Shown: positions 502 through 31,901 of the stretch, piece after piece
Position numbering within the stretch: position 1 is the stretch's first letter
Layout: every line of letters starts with the position of its first letter
Virus record (IMG/VR): IMGVR_UViG_2537561827_000016
Source of the DNA: a virus
Lineage: Duplodnaviria > Heunggongvirae > Uroviricota > Caudoviricetes
Direction: 5' to 3' (one strand)
Length of the DNA: 31,901 nt
The notes under the pieces: generated by a model
What the model saw: the letters and a program-made list of their open reading frames with translations, nothing else
Database searches by the model: none
Told to the model about the DNA's origin: nothing
Position numbers and translations under genes: made by a program

Positions 502-541
502 TAAACCCTGTTTTCCTTGCCATAGACACCATCCCTGTCTT

Positions 542-568
542 CCCCCACATGATGTGGGGGTTTTTTTT
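542..568 (+). terminator. Rho-independent terminator of cpxP
   Basis: GC-rich inverted repeat cccccacat / atgtggggg followed directly by a run of eight T. Confidence 0.8.
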
Positions 569-687
569 ATCAATTACTTACATGCAATCAAAAGTAAAAA
601 CAGTCACTTATCGAAAGCTGTAAGGGTTTGGAGTGGTTTCAAAATTTCTTGAGTGTGGACACTATGTGGACACTCAGAGGGGGAAAT

Positions 688-1668
688 TTATAACGTCACT
701 CCGCCTTTTAGTGGATTCAGAGCGACGGCATTTTGCAGGTAGTCAGGCGCAAGGTGCGCATAGGCCATCGTCTGCTGAATGCTCGCATGTCCCAGAATCT
801 GTTGCAGTGCGATTATATTGCCCCCATTCATCATGAAATGGCTTGCGAATGTATGCCGCAGGATGTGGGTTGCCTGATTGGGTGGTATATCAGGTTTCAC
901 TCTGCGTAAAATCCCGCAAAATTTCTCATAATCAACTTTGAATAATTTGGCGCTGGCCTCCTCTTTAACTTTTTTCTCCAGTTCCTCAGAAATCGGCACG
1001 GTTCGCTTTTTACCGTTTTTGGTTTTCAGGAAGGTAACCCTGCAATTTGTAATCTGTGCTGGTTTTAGCGTGGCAACTTCCGTCCATCTTCCTCCAGTGC
1101 TCAGACATAAAAGCGCGACAAGTAAGTCATCACCAGCCAAAACATTTAACAGTTTTGCGATTTCTGCTTTTTCCAGGAACGTCATTTCAGGGTTGGCCTC
1201 CGCCAGTGGCGGCAGTCCGTGAATTGGGGGTTGCCCGGAAAATTCATCCAATTGAATTAATTTTGTGAACATGCCGGATAATCGGTACATGTCACGGTTT
1301 ATCGTTGCGGCACTGATACCATCACGTAGTCGCATGGAACGATAATCCATCAAAGCCCTTTTGCTCATCCGGCTCACTGGTATATCACCTATGCCGCTGA
1401 TGGTTTTGAGTAGATGATTAAACTCTTTTGTTCCATGCTCGTGGTTTTGCCCGTGATATTTCCACCAGATGTCCAGCAACTCACTCAAAGTTCGGCGGTC
1501 TGCTCGCTGGCCTCCCCATTCTTTCTGACTGGCATTGGCGATTGTGTATCGCTCAAATGCTAGTGCTTCAGCTTTTCTTTCGAATTTCCTGCGGATGCGT
1601 TTTCCGTCGCGACCGCGAGGTCTAATGTCCACTTCATAGCGACCATCATCGAGCTTCTTAATTGCCAT
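688..1668 (-). CDS. int: Tyrosine-type integrase, P2/186 family
   Basis: N-terminus MAIKKLDDGRYEVDIRP matches P2 Int as recalled; C-terminal catalytic region has HxLRHT-like (ATHILRHTFASHFM) and terminal MAYAH tyrosine motif. ATG at 1668 preferred over the upstream alternative start; GAGGG RBS just upstream on the minus strand. Confidence 0.9.
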   Translation of the reverse strand: MAIKKLDDGRYEVDIRPRGRDGKRIRRKFERKAEALAFERYTIANASQKEWGGQRADRRTLSELLDIWWKYHGQNHEHGTKEFNHLLKTISGIGDIPVSRMSKRALMDYRSMRLRDGISAATINRDMYRLSGMFTKLIQLDEFSGQPPIHGLPPLAEANPEMTFLEKAEIAKLLNVLAGDDLLVALLCLSTGGRWTEVATLKPAQITNCRVTFLKTKNGKKRTVPISEELEKKVKEEASAKLFKVDYEKFCGILRRVKPDIPPNQATHILRHTFASHFMMNGGNIIALQQILGHASIQQTMAYAHLAPDYLQNAVALNPLKGGVTL

Positions 1669-1737
1669 AAGAAAGCCCTCCGGCGCTGTATTCACCATCT
1701 TGGTAGCAAATGGTGAAAATGTAATCTTTATATAGAG

Positions 1738-6663: not shown

Positions 6664-7608
6664 ATGCCAACAGTAGTTTCACTTTTTTCTGGATGCGGTG
6701 GTTCCGATGCGGGGGTTTTGAGAGCCGGCTTTGATGTGCTTATGGCCAACGATATCTTGCCGTATGCGCGCGATGTTTATATTGCCAATCATCCAGAAAC
6801 TGATTACATATTAGGCAATATTGCTGATGTAACTACTTTTCCTAAATCTGATTTGCTGGTAGGTTGTTATCCATGTCAGGGATTCAGCCAGGGTGGTGCG
6901 CGTAAAGCCGATCGAAAAATTAATACTCTTTATTTAGAGTTTGCTAGAGCTTTAAACAATATAAAGCCTAAAGCTTTTATAGTAGAAAACGTGTCTGGTA
7001 TGGTTAGAAAAAATTTTGAGCATTTGTTATCTGACCAGATCAGGGTTTTTACTGAAGCAGGTTATACTGTTTCCGCAAAAGTTTTAAATGCGGCTGAATA
7101 TGGAGTAGCGCAGGAAAGAAAAAGAATATTTATCGTAGGAATCCGTAATGATTTCAAAGTTAAGTACGAGTTCCCTCAGCCAACTCATGGGCCAGCAACT
7201 GGCGTCAACTATGTTACTATTAAAGATGCTATAGGGCATTTACCTGAATGGCCAGAAGGGGAATTTTATGATATGGGATTCCATTGGTATTATATGTCTC
7301 GCAATCGTCGCCAGGATTGGGATCAAATTTCAAAGACAATAGTTGCTAATGCAAGGCATATGCCGTTGCATCCTGTCAGTCCTCCGATGGAGAAAGTAAG
7401 AACTGATGAATGGAGATTTGTTGAGGATCGGAGAGCTCGCAGATTCAGTTTTCGAGAGGCAGCACTATTACAAGGGTTTGAGGATCTAGTGTTTCCAGAA
7501 ACAAATGCTGCAAGTCTTGGCATGAAATACACGGTGGTTGGTAATGCAGTGCCTCCGCCGCTTTTTGAAGCTGTAACGAAGGCATTGCCAATAGAATTAT
7601 GGGATTGA
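6664..7608 (+). CDS. DNA (cytosine-5)-methyltransferase
   Basis: Canonical C5-MTase motifs in order: FSGCGG (I, AdoMet binding), PCQGFS (IV, catalytic Cys), ENV (VI), QERKRIF (VIII), REAALLQGF (IX) and GNAVPPPLF (X). AGGAGGGG RBS upstream; TATAAT at 6633-6638. Confidence 0.9.
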   Translation: MPTVVSLFSGCGGSDAGVLRAGFDVLMANDILPYARDVYIANHPETDYILGNIADVTTFPKSDLLVGCYPCQGFSQGGARKADRKINTLYLEFARALNNIKPKAFIVENVSGMVRKNFEHLLSDQIRVFTEAGYTVSAKVLNAAEYGVAQERKRIFIVGIRNDFKVKYEFPQPTHGPATGVNYVTIKDAIGHLPEWPEGEFYDMGFHWYYMSRNRRQDWDQISKTIVANARHMPLHPVSPPMEKVRTDEWRFVEDRRARRFSFREAALLQGFEDLVFPETNAASLGMKYTVVGNAVPPPLFEAVTKALPIELWD

Positions 7609-7615
7609 TAAGCTA

Positions 7616-8605
7616 TTAAGGCTCTGGATTTAATGTATAAAGCTCTTCCTCAAATTCGCGAAACCAATCAGAGGTAGTTATCGCTTCCCATTGGTTTGCC
7701 TTATCAAGTAGATATATGATTCTCAACCTATCTAATAATAATACCCCAGCGGTTGCGTGTGTGCTTACCCATTCGCCATTTGCTTCCCGATAGAAAACAG
7801 GCGTGAACATTGTTGATGGATGCTGGAACGCAATTTGGAAATAGGTGGTCAGTTTTAACACGTTAGCCTCTAATGTTTTGCTTGGCCACCCTGTTTCTTG
7901 TGCACCACATTGACCAAGAATTCCATAGTTGCTAGTTTGACCATCAGGAAATTCCACTGTAGCAATTAGGTCAAACCCGGCATCACCAGATGTGGGAGCT
8001 CTATTTATTTCCCTTGTGTTTAAACTACAAACTCCAAGATCTTTTCCTAAAGTTTGTAGAGCTGTCCGAAGATTTGTTCCATAATAATTTTGCCTATCAT
8101 CGGAGTTAGCATCAAAAATTCTTACGGTGCCATGTGCAGGTAAGAGAGAAATCATTGCTACTTTACATACTCTGGCAAAGCTCTTTGCCCAACGTTGTGC
8201 TGCTCCTTTAATCGACTTAAAGGATCTAAGTCTAGAGCAGCAAAGAAGAAAAACATATATTCGTTGTTGTTGGTTTAGATTTTCTTTAATAATTATCTCA
8301 TCACCTGAAATTATAAATGGATATATTTTTCCAAGAGCACTTTCTCTATATTCGAGTTGTGTCCAAACATCTTCGAGTTGCTCTTCAAAACGATCATTTC
8401 TCTCAGCGTCTCCATTAATTTCTTCTTCAGAATTACATTCTTCATCAATTTCTTCAACGCTTGTTATGCCGAATTTTCTTACTGAATCTAAATCATTTTT
8501 ATGTAGTGAGTTACGTCCGGTATAATTAATTACCGTGAGTAACTCGGCTAAATCTGCAAACAAATGAGGAGAGTTGGGATGCATAACTCCTACTTCAAAA
8601 GTCAT
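7616..8605 (-). CDS. Hypothetical protein; candidate effector (possible restriction endonuclease) convergent with the MTase
   Basis: About 329-aa ORF ending 7 bp from the MTase stop, tail-to-tail; overlaps the upstream ParB-like gene by about 11 nt. Acidic cluster EEIDEECNSEEEINGDAERNDRFEEQLED. No family recognised by eye. Start chosen at ATG 8605 after the GAGG RBS; 8608 is an alternative. Confidence 0.6.
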   Translation of the reverse strand: MTFEVGVMHPNSPHLFADLAELLTVINYTGRNSLHKNDLDSVRKFGITSVEEIDEECNSEEEINGDAERNDRFEEQLEDVWTQLEYRESALGKIYPFIISGDEIIIKENLNQQQRIYVFLLCCSRLRSFKSIKGAAQRWAKSFARVCKVAMISLLPAHGTVRIFDANSDDRQNYYGTNLRTALQTLGKDLGVCSLNTREINRAPTSGDAGFDLIATVEFPDGQTSNYGILGQCGAQETGWPSKTLEANVLKLTTYFQIAFQHPSTMFTPVFYREANGEWVSTHATAGVLLLDRLRIIYLLDKANQWEAITTSDWFREFEEELYTLNPEP

Positions 8606-9716
8606 CATCACCTCTGCTATTTTTCTCTGCTATTTCAGAACCTATAAGCTTAATATGTTTATTGATTCTTCGTGCTACTTCATGGGCCTGTCTATCATAC
8701 TCTACCGTGGCAACCATGCCTGCTGCATCTATCAAAGCTGCTTCAACTTGATAAAGTAACTGGAGAAAGTCCTTAGTAATATCAGATGTCAATTGATAGG
8801 CAACTGCGAGTGGAGCCCCCATTCGGAATTGCTCCAATGCCTTAGGGCTACTTACAACAGCAGCTAGTTCTCTTAAATTACGTGATTCTCCTACACGAGT
8901 TTTTTTATCCTCGCCTTTTTTATATAACCATTCAGTTAGTTCTTTTATTTCTTTGTTCTTTAAACTCTTAGAATTGATGATAGGATGACTTGGTATTGTG
9001 TCTCCATCGTCTTCGATTGAAACTCCGACAAACTGGCCTAACCGCTCATCAGCAAGTGCTGTTGATAATACTGAAAATTTAATCGTTTCTTCATCTAGCT
9101 TTTCAATACCATAAAAATCATTTTTTTTAATGATTTCATACACCGCTAAAGCGTCTAGGTTACGCTTGATATGATCCCTACGACTGCCAATAGCTCTGGC
9201 AACCTCATAGTAGCGTAGCATTGGATCCAGATTTGCATTGGTATAATCAAAAAGCTGTTTAATATATCGAGCTTTTGATAAGGGTTCCCATTGTTTGACA
9301 CCAGTAATATGTCTGAAACCAAGGTACGGAAGAATCTCTTCTCTTGTTTGGCGCTCAATGACAGGAACACGATCGACCGTATGTTTTGCATTTGATGCAA
9401 TTTCTCGTAGTCGAGCACTTGGATTTTCACATAGTGTCGGATCGCGGAATAATTTGACCGCGGATAGGCGACGGTTTCCTTCAACTACAATGTACTTCCC
9501 CGGCGCTCCACTATCAGGAATGACAATCAATGGTTCTCCAGGGAAAAAACCATTTTCCGCAATAGCACTCATTAAGTCTTCGATAGATGTTGAGGTTGCT
9601 ATGTAGTTAATCATTCCCAATTGGTCACGAGACACGCCTTCAGGAAGTCTTGGGTTTTCTGTGTCAAGTTCCAAATCATCTAGCGGAACATAAAGTATTT
9701 CTGAATCAGCAATCAT
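8595..9716 (-). CDS. ParB/Srx-like nuclease-domain protein
   Basis: N-terminal region ILYVPLDDLELDTENPRLP ... PLIVIPDSGAPGKYIVVEGNRRLSAVKL resembles the ParB N-terminal fold (PNPxQPR-like box followed by a GxRRxxA box). C-terminal roughly 230 aa unassigned. First ATG at 9716 with GGAG RBS; the ORF track's TTG start at 9755 is not preferred. Confidence 0.7.
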   Translation of the reverse strand: MIADSEILYVPLDDLELDTENPRLPEGVSRDQLGMINYIATSTSIEDLMSAIAENGFFPGEPLIVIPDSGAPGKYIVVEGNRRLSAVKLFRDPTLCENPSARLREIASNAKHTVDRVPVIERQTREEILPYLGFRHITGVKQWEPLSKARYIKQLFDYTNANLDPMLRYYEVARAIGSRRDHIKRNLDALAVYEIIKKNDFYGIEKLDEETIKFSVLSTALADERLGQFVGVSIEDDGDTIPSHPIINSKSLKNKEIKELTEWLYKKGEDKKTRVGESRNLRELAAVVSSPKALEQFRMGAPLAVAYQLTSDITKDFLQLLYQVEAALIDAAGMVATVEYDRQAHEVARRINKHIKLIGSEIAEKNSRGDDDF

Positions 9717-9942
9717 CTGGATCTCCGTTGAACATGTCCACGAGAAGGAGCACAAAGTTATTTCATAACATGCAATATACTCATTCTGTAGCCATAAATG
9801 AATTATTCATGATGTAAGATTCGCGTTGATGTGCGTGAATTCGCAAGTAATTATACAGCAAGGTTTGATTGGGTATCGTCAGCACCAGTGCGGTTCCAAC
9901 GTACTCATGCAACTGCATTAAAACCGCCCCATGAAGCGGGCG

Positions 9943-22596: not shown

Positions 22597-23777
22597 AGTC
22601 TGCCTATGACAATGCTGAAAAACGTCTTCAGAAAGATCAGAACGGCGCGGATATTCCTGATAAAAGATTATTCCTGCGCAATATTGGAGCAACAAATTCA
22701 ACAACCATGTCTTTTAGTGGTGGTACAGGATGGTTCAGGCTGGCAACTGTAACCATGCCACAGGCCAGTTCCGTGGTTTACATAAGTCTGATTGGTGGTT
22801 CTGGATATAATGTTAACTCCCCTATGCAGGCTGGTATATCTGAACTTGTTCTTCGTGCGGGAAATGGGAATCCAAAAGGTCTTACTGGTGCGTTATGGCG
22901 ACGGACATCGGTTGGATTTACTAATTTTGCATGGGTGAATACATCCGGTGATACCTATGATGTTTATGTTGAAATAGGTAATTACACCACACGTGTTAAT
23001 ATTCAGTGGGATTATACCAGTAACGCCAGCGTAACGATTCATACATCACCATCTTATACAGCGAATAAACCAACAGGCCTGACAGATGGAACTGTATATG
23101 TAATTTACAGTTCACATATTAAACCTACTGCTGCTGACCTTGGCTTGAGCGATGCAAGTGGATACGTGGGACGCTTGGTGAATACCCGGGTTTTCACGTC
23201 ATCAGGTACGTACACCCCGACGCCAGGAACAAAACGGATTAGGGTCACAATAACGGGCGGCGGTGGCGGAGGGGGCGGCTGCAAGGCTATATCCAATAAT
23301 GAAACGTTTTTCGGTGCTGGCGGTGGGGCCGGTGGAACAATAATTTCAATAATGACCCCGATACAGAATAGTTATCCAGTCACTATCGGCGCAGGTGGGG
23401 CCGGTGGTGTTAGTGCGACGAACGGCACCAGTGGCGGGAATAGCGTATTCGCATCGTTAATTGCTCCTGGTGGCGCAGGTGGCGGGAAAGTGGGAATTAC
23501 AAACACAAACGGCGGTAACGGAGGTGTGCCGAGTACTGGCGATATCCGCATCACTGGTGGAAATGGAGGCGACGGTCAGTCCGGAAATATCAGCGTCAGT
23601 GGTGAAGGCGGAACATCGTACTGGGGTGGCGGTGGACGCGCAGGCGCTGGCGGTGGCGTTAGCGGTAAGGCATATGGTTCAGGCGGAGGTGGTGCATACG
23701 ATGCCGGTTATAGCGGAACCAGTATGACAGGCGGGAAAGGTGCCGCTGGGATTTGTATTATCGAGGAGTTTGCATAA
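22593..23777 (+). CDS. H: Tail fibre protein H, C-terminal fragment with Gly-rich distal domain
   Basis: Coordinates follow the ORF track (GTG at 22593). The same frame is open from 22479 and encodes LANGKYTAQDATTARKGLVQLSSATNSTSETLAATPKAVKSAYD, continuing the H motif. C-terminus is glycine-rich, including an eight-glycine run. Confidence 0.75.
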   Translation: MKSAYDNAEKRLQKDQNGADIPDKRLFLRNIGATNSTTMSFSGGTGWFRLATVTMPQASSVVYISLIGGSGYNVNSPMQAGISELVLRAGNGNPKGLTGALWRRTSVGFTNFAWVNTSGDTYDVYVEIGNYTTRVNIQWDYTSNASVTIHTSPSYTANKPTGLTDGTVYVIYSSHIKPTAADLGLSDASGYVGRLVNTRVFTSSGTYTPTPGTKRIRVTITGGGGGGGGCKAISNNETFFGAGGGAGGTIISIMTPIQNSYPVTIGAGGAGGVSATNGTSGGNSVFASLIAPGGAGGGKVGITNTNGGNGGVPSTGDIRITGGNGGDGQSGNISVSGEGGTSYWGGGGRAGAGGGVSGKAYGSGGGGAYDAGYSGTSMTGGKGAAGICIIEEFA

Positions 23778-24187
23778 TGAATGCGTCATATGCAGTTATT
23801 GAAAATGGGATGGTTGTGAATGTCATTGTCTGGGATGGCGAGGCTGAATTCACAGTGCCGGATAATCAGCAGCTCATTGATATTTCTGATATCAGTGAGC
23901 ATCCCGGAATCGGCTGGGGGTATTCAGACGGGGTATTTACTGCGCCGCTCCCTCCGGAACGTTCTCATGATGAACTGGTAGCTGACGCTGAACAGAAAAA
24001 ACAGTCGCTGATAGACGCAGCAATGGCCAATATCAGCGTGATTCAGTTAAAGCTGCAGGCCGGGCGCAAACTGACGCAAGAAGAAACTACCCGACTTAAC
24101 GTTGTGCTGGATTATATCGACGCTGTGACGGCAACAGATACCAGCACCGCACCGGATGTCATCTGGCCTGAACTGCAGGAGGCGTAG
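23777..24187 (+). CDS. G: Tail fibre assembly chaperone (G/Tfa-like)
   Basis: 136 aa from ATG 23777, overlapping the H stop (TAATG). The acidic C-terminus ending in PDVIWPELQEA is of the kind seen at Tfa chaperone C-termini; N-terminus diverged. Confidence 0.7.
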   Translation: MNASYAVIENGMVVNVIVWDGEAEFTVPDNQQLIDISDISEHPGIGWGYSDGVFTAPLPPERSHDELVADAEQKKQSLIDAAMANISVIQLKLQAGRKLTQEETTRLNVVLDYIDAVTATDTSTAPDVIWPELQEA

Positions 24188-24393
24188 GCCATTCAATATC
24201 TGACGTACCGGAAGTATCGGACCGCTCCGGTGCGTACAGGTAATCCAGCCACAAATTATATTGCGCCAGTACCTCAGACCTGCCGGGCTATTGCTTACTG
24301 TTCATGTATTTATTGGCCTGATTAATCAGTAGCTGTCTTTCTGGTCGTGTGGATCCTGCAAATCCTGAATGGTCGGAAATACCGCAATAAATA

Positions 24394-24421
24394 CAGGCGG
24401 GCTGATTGCCCGCCTTTTTTA
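24394..24421 (+). terminator. Rho-independent terminator after G
   Basis: Hairpin GGCGGG-ctgattg-CCCGCC followed by TTTTTTAT. Confidence 0.6.
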
Positions 24422-29177: not shown

Positions 29178-29657
29178 ATGATGCTCGCGTTAGGTATGTT
29201 TGTTTTTATGCGCCAGACGCTGCCACACCAGACCATGCAGCGTGAATCAGATTATCGCTGGCCGTCAAATTCCCGTATCGGTAAACGGGAGGCCTACCAG
29301 TTTCTCGGTGTGGGTGAGGAAAACATGACGCTTGCCGGTGTGCTTTATCCCGAACTGACCGGCGGAAAGCTGACGATGACCACGCTCAGGCTGATGGCAG
29401 ATGAAGGCCGGGCGTGGCCGTTGCTGGATGGCACTGGCATGATTTACGGCATGTATGTCATCAGCAAGGTGAGTGAAACAGGGAGTATTTTCTTTGCAGA
29501 CGGCACACCCCGAAAAATTGATTTTACGCTGTCGCTCACCCGCGTTGACGAATCACTGGCCGCGCTTTATGGCGATATCGGTAAACAGGCGGAATCGCTC
29601 ATCGGTAAGGCTGGCAGTATGGCGACCAGATTCACGGGTATGACGGGGGCGGGATAA
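29178..29657 (+). CDS. U: Tail protein U
   Basis: 159 aa, P2 gpU size and position. Confidence 0.9.
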   Translation: MMLALGMFVFMRQTLPHQTMQRESDYRWPSNSRIGKREAYQFLGVGEENMTLAGVLYPELTGGKLTMTTLRLMADEGRAWPLLDGTGMIYGMYVISKVSETGSIFFADGTPRKIDFTLSLTRVDESLAALYGDIGKQAESLIGKAGSMATRFTGMTGAG

Positions 29658-30820
29658 TGCTGGATGCGCTGACATTTGATGCAGGCAGTACGCTGACGCC
29701 GGATTACATGCTGATGCTCGACAGCAGGGATATTACCGGCAATATCAGCGACCGTCTGATGAGCATGACCCTGACGGATAACCGGGGCTTTGAGGCTGAC
29801 CAGCTTGATATTGAACTGAACGATGCCGACGGGCAGGTCGGGCTGCCGATTCGTGGCGCTGTCCTGACGGTGTATATCGGCTGGAAAGGCTTTGCCCTGG
29901 TATGCAAAGGGAAATTTACCGTTGATGAGGTTGAACACCGGGGCGCACCGGATGTGGTCACCATCCGTGCCCGGAGTGCAGATTTTCGTGGGACGCTCAA
30001 TTCCCGCCGGGAAGGCTCCTGGCATGACACCACGCTCGGTGCGATTGTTGAGGCGATAGCCTCCCGTAACAGGCTGGAAGCCAGTGTCGCTCCGTCACTG
30101 GCCGGAATTAAAATCCCGCACATCGACCAGTCGCAGGAGTCTGATGTGAAATTCCTGACCCGTCTTGCTGAACGCAACGGCGGCGAGGTGTCGGTAAAAA
30201 TGGGAAAACTGCTGTTTCTCAAAGCAGGGCAGGGGGTGACGGCCAGCGGTAAAAAAATCCCGCAGATTACCATCACCCGCAGCGACGGCGACCGCCATCA
30301 TTTTGCGATTGCTGACCGTGGAGCCTATACCGGCGTAACGGCAAAGTGGTTACACACCAAAGACCCGAAGCCACAAAAGCAGAAGGTAAAACTGAAACGC
30401 AAAAAGAAAGAGAAACACCTGCGCGCACTGGAGCACCCGAAAGCGAAACCAGTCACGCAGAAGAAAGCGTCAAAAGTACCGGAAGCGCGCGAAGGTGAAT
30501 ACATGGCAGGTGAGGCTGACAACGTTTTTGCCCTGACCACGGTATATGCCACGAAAGCGCAGGCCATGCGCGCCGCTCAGGCGAAGTGGGACAAACTGCA
30601 ACGGGGCGTCGCGGAGTTCTCCATCAGCCTTGCCACTGGTCGTGCTGATATTTACACGGAAACACCGGTCAGAGTGTCAGGCTTTAAGCGCGTCATAGAC
30701 GAGCAGGACTGGACAATCACTAAGGTGACACATTTTCTGAATAATAGCGGCTTCACGACGTCCTTAGAGCTTGAGGTCAGGCTTTCTGATGTGGAGTACG
30801 AAACAGAAGATGATGATTAA
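29657..30820 (+). CDS. D: Tail protein D (late control gene D family)
   Basis: 387 aa, P2 gpD size and position. Confidence 0.9.
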   Translation: MLDALTFDAGSTLTPDYMLMLDSRDITGNISDRLMSMTLTDNRGFEADQLDIELNDADGQVGLPIRGAVLTVYIGWKGFALVCKGKFTVDEVEHRGAPDVVTIRARSADFRGTLNSRREGSWHDTTLGAIVEAIASRNRLEASVAPSLAGIKIPHIDQSQESDVKFLTRLAERNGGEVSVKMGKLLFLKAGQGVTASGKKIPQITITRSDGDRHHFAIADRGAYTGVTAKWLHTKDPKPQKQKVKLKRKKKEKHLRALEHPKAKPVTQKKASKVPEAREGEYMAGEADNVFALTTVYATKAQAMRAAQAKWDKLQRGVAEFSISLATGRADIYTETPVRVSGFKRVIDEQDWTITKVTHFLNNSGFTTSLELEVRLSDVEYETEDDD

Positions 30821-30900: not shown

Positions 30901-31119
30901 ATGTTTCATTGTCCTTTATGCCAGCATGCCGCACATGCGCGTACAAGTCGCTATATCACTGACACGACAAAAGAGCGTTATCACCAGTGCCAGAACGTGA
31001 ATTGCAGCGCTACGTTCATCACTTATGAGTCGGTACAGCGATACATCGTGAAGCCGGGAGAAGTCCACGCCGTGAGGCCGCACCCGTTGCCGTCAGGGCA
31101 GCAAATTATGTGGATGTAA
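30901..31119 (+). CDS. ogr: Late-gene transcriptional activator Ogr (C4 zinc finger)
   Basis: 72 aa from ATG 30901 (MFHCPLCQHAAHARTSRYITDTTKERYHQCQNVNC...); CxxC-N22-CxxxxC zinc-finger pattern and length match P2 Ogr. Confidence 0.9.
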   Translation: MFHCPLCQHAAHARTSRYITDTTKERYHQCQNVNCSATFITYESVQRYIVKPGEVHAVRPHPLPSGQQIMWM

Positions 31120-31129
31120 TTACAAACAG

Positions 31130-31160
31130 AAAGCCCCTCAGTCGAGGGGCTTTCTGTTTT
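31130..31160 (+). terminator. Rho-independent terminator after ogr
   Basis: Hairpin AAAGCCCCTC-agtc-GAGGGGCTTT followed by CTGTTTT. Confidence 0.7.
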
Positions 31161-31259
31161 GGGGAATATTCTTCATTAAAAGTAGTGGATCACGTTTAAT
31201 AAACTATGTTTATCATATACTTAAAAGTAACTTTTTAAAGTTGGACAGGTTGGTGGAAA

Positions 31260-31901
31260 ATGGAAAAAGTTATAATTGAGCTTGATAATCGTTGGGAGTT
31301 AGCTGATTTCGCGGTCTTAACGAAAGAGTATTTGCAGCTATATGGTTTTTTTTATGGCCTAAAAGGAGGATCAAGAGGATATTCAACAATGCCTTGGGAG
31401 GGTGGGCACAGTGTAGTGAACTTTTTTAGAGGGGCTTACAGTGCGACTCCACCAGATTTACGTCCTGTAGTGAAAAAAATTCAGTATGCCTCTCCTGGCT
31501 TTATTGAATTGTCTGCTCTTATTGATATCTCTTGGCAGATTGCTGAGTTAGTTACTGCTGTTGGTGGAAGTATTCTGGCTGCCAACAAAGTTTACGATCA
31601 GGTGATGCGTACATATCGACAAAGAGAATGGGCAAAGTTGAAATCAGAGAAGCTGCGTATACAGAATCAAATTAAAGAGATTGAACTTGTTTCTGACGCA
31701 GTTAAATCACTTGAATCTGTGATGGCACTTAGTGAAGAACAACGTAAAAACTTGGTTCAACTATCGGGGGCAGATGAACTGGTTCAGTTAAAGATACTTT
31801 TGGCTGTTTACCGACGGTTATCTCCTCTTGTTGAGTTGCAAAACAGCGGGAAAGCTAATTTTTCTGCAGGGAAAAATAAAAATTTAAAAGCGTCCGATTA
31901 A
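31260..31901 (+). CDS. Hypothetical protein, AT-rich, C-terminal coiled-coil-like region
   Basis: 213-aa ORF with complete stop at 31899-31901, preceded by an AT-rich intergenic region. Not the fieF gene that follows cpxP in E. coli K-12. No recognised domain. Confidence 0.55.
   Translation: MEKVIIELDNRWELADFAVLTKEYLQLYGFFYGLKGGSRGYSTMPWEGGHSVVNFFRGAYSATPPDLRPVVKKIQYASPGFIELSALIDISWQIAELVTAVGGSILAANKVYDQVMRTYRQREWAKLKSEKLRIQNQIKEIELVSDAVKSLESVMALSEEQRKNLVQLSGADELVQLKILLAVYRRLSPLVELQNSGKANFSAGKNKNLKASD

Follow-up and report, generated by a model that had tools for sequence, protein, structure and literature searches.

A C-terminal-domain homolog of PD-T4-10B, without the antitoxin gene, is carried between ogr and the attachment site of a P2-like prophage

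Introduction

Beyond ogr, at the right end of the prophage studied here, lies an AT-rich gene whose ownership is not obvious from its position: it could belong to the phage, to the host or to a separate genomic island. We followed it up in virus record IMGVR_UViG_2537561827_000016 (Caudoviricetes), a stretch of 31,901 nucleotides to which we refer in its entirety as the window. The original prediction, made from the letters of the window, left the choice between phage cargo at the att-proximal end and part of an island at an integration hotspot, and named the finding of the gene as a conserved host core gene in prophage-free relatives as the result that would speak against it.

The protein proved to be related to PD-T4-10, a defence system of two overlapping ORFs from ECOR65 in which B is toxic and A neutralises B (Vassallo et al. 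2022, Nat Microbiol; PMC9519451). PD-T4-10B is needed for abortive-infection defence against T4, and the system acts on T-even phages. Neither protein has a predicted function, and DUF6575 is among the novel defence domains of that study (PMC9519451). The published cargo hotspots of P2 lie between gpA and gpQ, within the tail genes (Z/fun), between int and the primase gene, and between int and att (PMC9519451, PMC13586616).

Results

The gene after ogr

The features at the right end of the window are as follows.

30901..31119, plus strand: ogr, late transcription activator with an Ogr/Delta zinc finger (Pfam PF04606, E=1.7e-21; annotated as ogrK in the ORF-bearing locus L001)
31130..31160, plus strand: ogr terminator, hairpin AAAGCCCCTC-AGTC-GAGGGGCTTT and then a T-rich tail, read from the sequence
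31252..31256, plus strand: Shine-Dalgarno-like GGTGG, 3 nt 5' of the ATG, read from the sequence; the start codon has the same position in orthologs
31260..31901, plus strand: 213-aa ORF with an ATG start, a short-form PD-T4-10_B-like protein (WP_000416606.1) comprising the C-terminal domain only

Preceded by gpD (29657-30820), ogr is the last core phage gene. The predicted 213-aa ORF and its AT-rich spacer of about 100 bp were both borne out: the spacer between the ogr terminator and the start codon measures 99 bp (140 bp upstream in all, terminator and spacer together), and the TAA stop forms the final three bases of the window. The ORF has a GC content of 39.9% and a GC3 of 31%, compared with 55% and 62% for gpD, and sliding GC runs at 37-42% over the ORF compared with 54-59% in the tail genes. 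Homologs show a GC content of about 40% in every host examined, Pseudomonas included.

Identical copies, many relatives and purifying selection establish the ORF as a real gene. Of 5426 complete E. coli genomes, 158-159 (about 3%) carry it with 100% identity, and its product WP_000416606.1 is already annotated there as 'hypothetical protein'. Comparison with its ortholog in Kosakonia gave a pN of 0.125, while pS was saturated at 0.76, which indicates strong purifying selection.

A promoter scan upstream of the ORF returned no match above the shuffled background, and the spacer differs in sequence in Kosakonia and is not conserved. Terminators lie on both sides, that of ogr upstream and the hairpin with T-run of the att core downstream. 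We found no credible small partner ORF near the gene, so that it appears as a single gene and not as one half of a type II toxin-antitoxin pair. An Rfam search returned only sub-threshold matches on terminator hairpins, with no hint of an RNA antitoxin, and no tandem repeats suggesting one were found. We also considered a transmembrane toxin and rejected it, the Kyte-Doolittle maximum over 19 residues being 1.35, at which no transmembrane segment is predicted.

The right boundary of the prophage

Three features at the left end of the window served to place the attachment sites.

525..571, no strand assigned: attL core, a 47-bp exact direct repeat, GACACCATCCCTGTCTTCCCCCACATGATGTGGGGGTTTTTTTTATC, which is also the cpxP terminator
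654..671, plus strand: int-proximal pair of integrase arm-type repeats, TGTGGAC(N4)TGTGGAC, pattern positions 654 and 665
688..1698, minus strand: integrase, with 99.6% DNA identity to Yersinia phage L-413C and related peduoviruses

The core emerged as the longest substring shared by the window's left end and the L001 sequence 3' of the ORF. There it recurs as attR, at nt 83-129 after the end of the window (L001 12865-12911), and the statement that no attR core could be identified was therefore accurate for the window, the core being outside it. The same TGTGGAC(N4)TGTGGAC pair recurs on the ogr-proximal side, 16-33 nt past the window end (+16 and +27). We take these pairs to be P2-type integrase arm sites; P2 Int binds arm repeats of the TGTGGACA type.

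In complete genomes fieF, which the original prediction had expected as host neighbour, begins 207 nt after the ORF stop. The comparison with empty sites that it had proposed proved decisive. With a query running from ogr through the ORF and attR into fieF, prophage-free E. coli genomes align only from position 1016, the first base of the core, which defines the att sites. The ORF is absent between cpxP and fieF in these genomes, which rules out a conserved core gene of the host. The atypical composition and the position at the very edge of the prophage would fit a host gene or a separate island between prophage and fieF. This reading is refuted, to the point of near certainty, by the core and arm sites downstream of the ORF, by the lack of anything left of the core in prophage-free strains and by the linkage of all 159 copies to ogr. 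The same observations place the ORF inside the prophage: the AT-rich gene is cargo of a P2-like prophage, at its att-proximal end, and not a host gene. The idea that it might co-occur with defence genes downstream did not hold either, as it stands alone before attR and fieF.

The att core is itself the intrinsic terminator of cpxP, CCCCCACATGATGTGGGGG followed by a T-run. Integration thereby rebuilds the cpxP terminator at attL, and the core is the only obvious terminator for the cargo ORF, both at attR and in the free phage's attP. The ORF stop and the window end (31890-31901 plus 10 nt; L001 12770-12791) are spanned by a perfect 8-bp inverted repeat, AGCGTCCG-ATTAAA-CGGACGCT, which has a terminator-like score on the minus strand. 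GGACGCT occurs both in the right arm of this inverted repeat and in the first integrase arm repeat, which follows 12 nt downstream; the shared letters may reflect microhomology left by the insertion, or else a further, partial arm site. A literature search found no paper on P2-like integration at cpxP. The right boundary of this prophage type is now fixed, and cargo can lie right beside the integrase arm sites at the ogr-facing end of attP.

A binary cargo slot between ogr and attP

Comparing the filled junction of L001 with the empty junctions of four ORF-less prophages (L012-L015) delimited the insertion.

31154..31901 and on to 12 nt past the window end, plus strand: insertion (moron) of about 760 bp

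Its left edge is the terminator tail of ogr and its right edge abuts the first arm repeat. The 7-bp GGACGCT repeat at the right edge is the only scar, and we recognised no attC or other recombination scar. The phage arm of 82 nt, from ORF stop to core, was found in 664 E. coli genomes, 158-159 of which have the ORF, and every E. coli copy of the ORF stands in the order ogr, ORF, attR, fieF. In the ORF-less prophages that we inspected (4/4), the ogr terminator tail runs straight into the first arm repeat (...GGGGCTTTATTTATGGTC followed directly by GATGTGGACGCTATGTGGACAG), with an equivalent of the ogr terminator hairpin kept, and further genomes align end to end with this empty ogr-arm junction. 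The slot is thus binary in the sampled E. coli prophages, either empty or occupied by this one gene, and not hypervariable. Prophages that bear the ORF do vary elsewhere, as in the tail-fibre genes, which differ between L001 and L002.

The same slot is occupied in a P2-like prophage of Kosakonia arachidis, where an ortholog of 77-81% identity stands in the order gpD, ogr, ORF, arm and core, with 46 of 47 core positions matching. A tblastn search of 50,697 phage records found no relative of the ORF. Yersinia phage L-413C resembles the window prophage closely: gene order and ogr agree, and integrase and attP arm show 99.6% identity. Unlike the window prophage, it has just 273 bp (attP) between ogr and int and no ORF. 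The gene is therefore a self-contained and dispensable accessory insertion in an L-413C-type P2-like prophage at the cpxP terminator. Lying between the ogr terminator and the attP arm sites, it is packaged and transferred with the phage.

In Kosakonia arachidis (L016 6011-7810) a 599-aa multi-pass membrane protein resembling a sulfatase or phosphoethanolamine-transferase is encoded between the attR core and fieF, outside the prophage. With this extra gene beyond attR, the intergenic site gathers other insertions in Kosakonia.

The slot lies outside the hotspots listed in PMC9519451 and PMC13586616: it runs from ogr to the ogr-proximal attP arm, and it differs from the two P2 hotspots of PMC9519451 in particular. 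Like old, tin and fun of P2, the gene is AT-rich, non-essential, probably single-gene defence cargo, and present in a fraction of similar phages. Unlike the P2 hotspots, its slot is not hypervariable in the E. coli prophages that we sampled.

Other cargo in the window

The classical P2 hotspot, from replication gene A to the portal gene (window 6664-9755), holds three cargo genes.

6664-7605, plus strand: Dcm-type cytosine methyltransferase (PADLOC DruM/MTase_II matches down to 1e-113)
7619-8611, minus strand: 331-aa protein with no PADLOC match, in a two-gene operon with the 386-aa protein and opposite to the methyltransferase
8598-9755, minus strand: 386-aa ParB-N-domain protein (PADLOC PD-Lambda-5_A match, E=4.9e-28)

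The operon of the 386-aa and 331-aa proteins may encode a system like PD-Lambda-5 whose B component has diverged. At the position of the Z/fun hotspot, between the tail-fibre and sheath genes (window about 23750-24400; L001 4718-5252), there are only partial or inverted pseudogene fragments of tail-fibre assembly genes, which suggests a decayed invertible or duplicated assembly segment and not defence cargo.

A PD-T4-10B relative reduced to the C-terminal domain

The 213-aa protein matches the PADLOC profiles of PD-T4-10_B (PDLC04024, E=1.3e-34; PDLC04025, 7e-23; PDLC04026, 3e-19). In the best of these matches, residues 3-201 align with profile positions 139-346 of 353, and the protein covers only the C-terminal domain of about 200 aa, with no DUF6575-like N-domain. 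Pfam, PHROGs and NCBIfam searches with the protein gave nothing significant, and Pfam searches with 75 family members gave no recurrent weak match.

An exhaustive HMMER search yielded 394 cluster-representative relatives of two architectures. Short forms, to which the 213-aa protein belongs, have about 205-245 aa; long forms, at about 320-400 aa, carry an N-terminal extension of 125-170 aa. Short forms are the commoner among the best 150 of the 394 representatives. Long forms match the entire PADLOC profile (380 bits for the metagenomic P0220), and the N-termini of P0220, P0200 and P0204 match Pfam DUF6575 (PF20215). Kinship to PD-T4-10B is established through the PADLOC profiles and through P0220 as a stand-in, not through the ECOR65 protein RCO36088.1 itself. 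DNA similarity between the metagenomic long form and the E. coli PD-T4-10 locus was sought and gave no match, and a k-mer protein search from P0220 returned metagenomic relatives only.

Across 75 short and 40 long forms, with the domain offset taken from PADLOC and phmmer coordinates, residues Y28, W46, G48, G49, S51, S78-P79-G80, Y112, R185 and R186 are conserved to at least 82%, and the 213-aa protein keeps every family-wide invariant residue. The shared domain consists of an alpha/beta unit and a helical bundle and bears the motifs W-x-G-G-x-S, S-P-G, Y and R-R. Because short and long forms have the same invariant residues, the shared domain appears to hold one conserved function.

An AlphaFold (AF2) model of the protein has a pLDDT of 90.2. 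A coiled-coil-like C-terminal half had been predicted, which holds only approximately: in the model, residues 88-195 form six helices, each 6-23 residues long, that pack into a compact bundle and not into a long coiled coil. The structure search that had been proposed for the 213-aa protein brought no solved structure matching the confident AlphaFold models, and PDB sequences searched with a profile yielded no match with an E-value under 0.3. Neither structural nor Pfam similarity points to a biochemical activity. On its sequence, the protein is best described as a member of the PD-T4-10B superfamily reduced to the conserved C-domain.

Genomic settings of other short forms

Related loci were gathered with an alignment of 18 closer sequences, which gave 37 loci from isolate genomes and MAGs spanning Gamma-, Beta- and Alphaproteobacteria, Nitrospira, Spirochaetia, Planctomycetota and Sphingobacteriales. 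By ORF calling, 28 are short and four are long (L048, L049, L050 and L052); no single ORF runs across the match at the other five, and their architecture is unconfirmed.

No neighbour family recurs around the short forms. At most 2 of 150 neighbours share one, as judged by blastp clustering and Pfam, and these two come from near-identical Pseudomonas elements. At several loci the homolog is part of an integron cassette array with its attC-type repeats. One example is Vibrio brasiliensis (L026), where two such repeats 771 bp apart bracket the homolog alone, and homologs of 45-48% identity likewise stand alone between attC-type repeats in arrays of Vibrio, Onishia and Halomonas. The window gene is like single-gene defence cassettes of chromosomal integrons in that its integron homologs stand alone, and unlike them in that it sits in a phage genome, without attC.

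In Pseudomonas the homolog is carried by a P4-like satellite or prophage, next to a gene for a DUF4917 protein, the PADLOC candidate PDC-S21. At two of these loci (L017 5649-6653 and L022 5636-6634), the DUF4917 protein (PDC-S21, E=2.5e-97) follows the short-form homolog by about 30 nt, and the pair could be a lineage-specific two-gene arrangement. Neighbours within 2.6 kb of short forms include PifA, ShosA, AbiU, PD-Lambda-4_A, PD-T4-6, PsyrA, SoFic, QatA, PDC-S21 and a reverse transcriptase, a list of occurrences rather than an enrichment.

Antitoxin A accompanies long forms and is absent next to short forms

At all five long-form loci examined for it, an alignable A gene of 141-146 aa overlaps the start of B.

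L011 74-505: A gene
L048 4204-4629: A gene
L049 4129-4557: A gene
L050 3213-3653: A gene
L052 4162-4599: A gene

Antitoxins of the PD-T4-10A type have a conserved C-P-P-x-D near the N-terminus, more Cys, and H-x-(H/D)-F near the C-terminus. This Cys/His pattern would suit a metal-binding or enzymatic protein better than a simple blocking peptide.

Searches of the 31.9-kb window with the A-HMM, tblastn and PADLOC on the non-core genes found no A, and the A-HMM found none at 35 short-form loci from very diverse taxa with flanks of up to 5-6 kb on either side (0/35). The best stray match had an E-value of 0.006 and lies inside the host gene fpr. A PADLOC scan of all 93 ORFs of the window is dominated by methyltransferase models. 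The gene stands without A, and short forms are autonomous. Since A is missing, rules of the PADLOC type would call no system here.

Discussion

The gene after ogr resembles PD-T4-10B in its C-domain, with all invariant residues kept, and in its carriage by a P2-like prophage, as for many systems of the screen that found PD-T4-10 (PMC9519451). It differs from PD-T4-10 in having neither the DUF6575-like N-domain of about 140 aa (full B proteins have about 330-370 aa) nor an upstream, overlapping A. The family and the prophage-cargo setting are known; what is new is a PD-T4-10B homolog without antitoxin and without N-domain, in an unlisted cargo slot of P2.

What might such a protein do on its own? 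We give slightly better than even chances to the reading, drawn from homology and genomic setting, that the solo short form is a single-gene defence effector of the abortive-infection type that benefits both lysogen and prophage. The conserved C-domain of about 200 aa would be the effector part of the PD-T4-10B family. Intrinsic autoinhibition or low expression would keep the solo protein harmless in the lysogen. It would become active when a competing phage infects, and the infected cell would stop growing, so that the lysogen population and its prophage would be protected. A toxin domain without an antitoxin would indeed call for a safety mechanism, for which autoinhibition and low expression are the candidates. 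If the toxic part of PD-T4-10B were the DUF6575-like N-domain, the short form would be no toxin.

That last condition leads to an alternative that we consider unlikely, in which the shared C-domain is a non-toxic sensor, scaffold or antitoxin-docking domain and the short form does not kill; it might then be a decoy or dominant-negative inhibitor of PD-T4-10-type systems that aids phage or lysogen, or might act with an unlinked host partner. The short form does lack both the DUF6575-like N-domain and the A gene, cells of many taxa tolerate it without an antitoxin, and here it is phage-borne. However, most short forms lie outside phages, in chromosomal integron cassettes and defence-rich islets, which would be odd for an anti-defence protein, and short forms outnumber long ones among the best 150 representatives. 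The identical invariant polar and glycine motifs in both forms suggest an active or ligand-binding site rather than a docking surface. We think it no more probable that the gene is a lysogenic-conversion or phage-fitness gene with no role in phage defence, acting for example on host physiology or on how the prophage integrates and excises. Conversion functions are common among morons, this insertion stops 12 nt short of the first arm repeat, and its protein has no predictable biochemical function. Yet P2 recombination cannot be served by homologs that reside in integron cassettes, in Pseudomonas satellites and at chromosomal sites outside phages, and the sole experimentally characterised relative is a defence toxin (PMC9519451).

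The toxicity of PD-T4-10B without A (PMC9519451) also raises the question of whether the short form is an orphan toxin whose A-like antitoxin acts in trans from another place in the genome, such as a full PD-T4-10 locus or a second mobile element. Our search for A covered the window and 5-10 kb on either side of related loci, which leaves room for such a partner. No A-like ORF was found, though, in the 31.9-kb window or at the 35 short-form loci, an obligate unlinked partner is hard to square with spread as a lone cassette and moron, and A presumably docks on parts that the short form is missing. We regard restraint in trans as quite improbable.

Returning to the single-gene effector, it is tempting to go further and suppose that the domain of about 200 aa would by itself be a complete phage-sensing, cell-arresting effector, with A and the DUF6575-like N-domain as add-on regulation. 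We offer this as a tentative proposal, with the balance somewhat against it. Comparing the solo domain with the two-gene PD-T4-10 system could reveal which part kills and which part regulates. If the proposal is true, hundreds of unannotated solo PD-T4-10B defence genes would reside in integron cassettes, satellites and prophages, and the ogr-attP junction would join the cargo slots of P2-like phages as one not listed before. Should the gene prove active, annotators that require A and B together miss a widespread single-gene family. For E. coli, a 'hypothetical protein' of about 3% of complete genomes (159/5426) becomes a testable, antitoxin-less candidate relative of a validated defence toxin.
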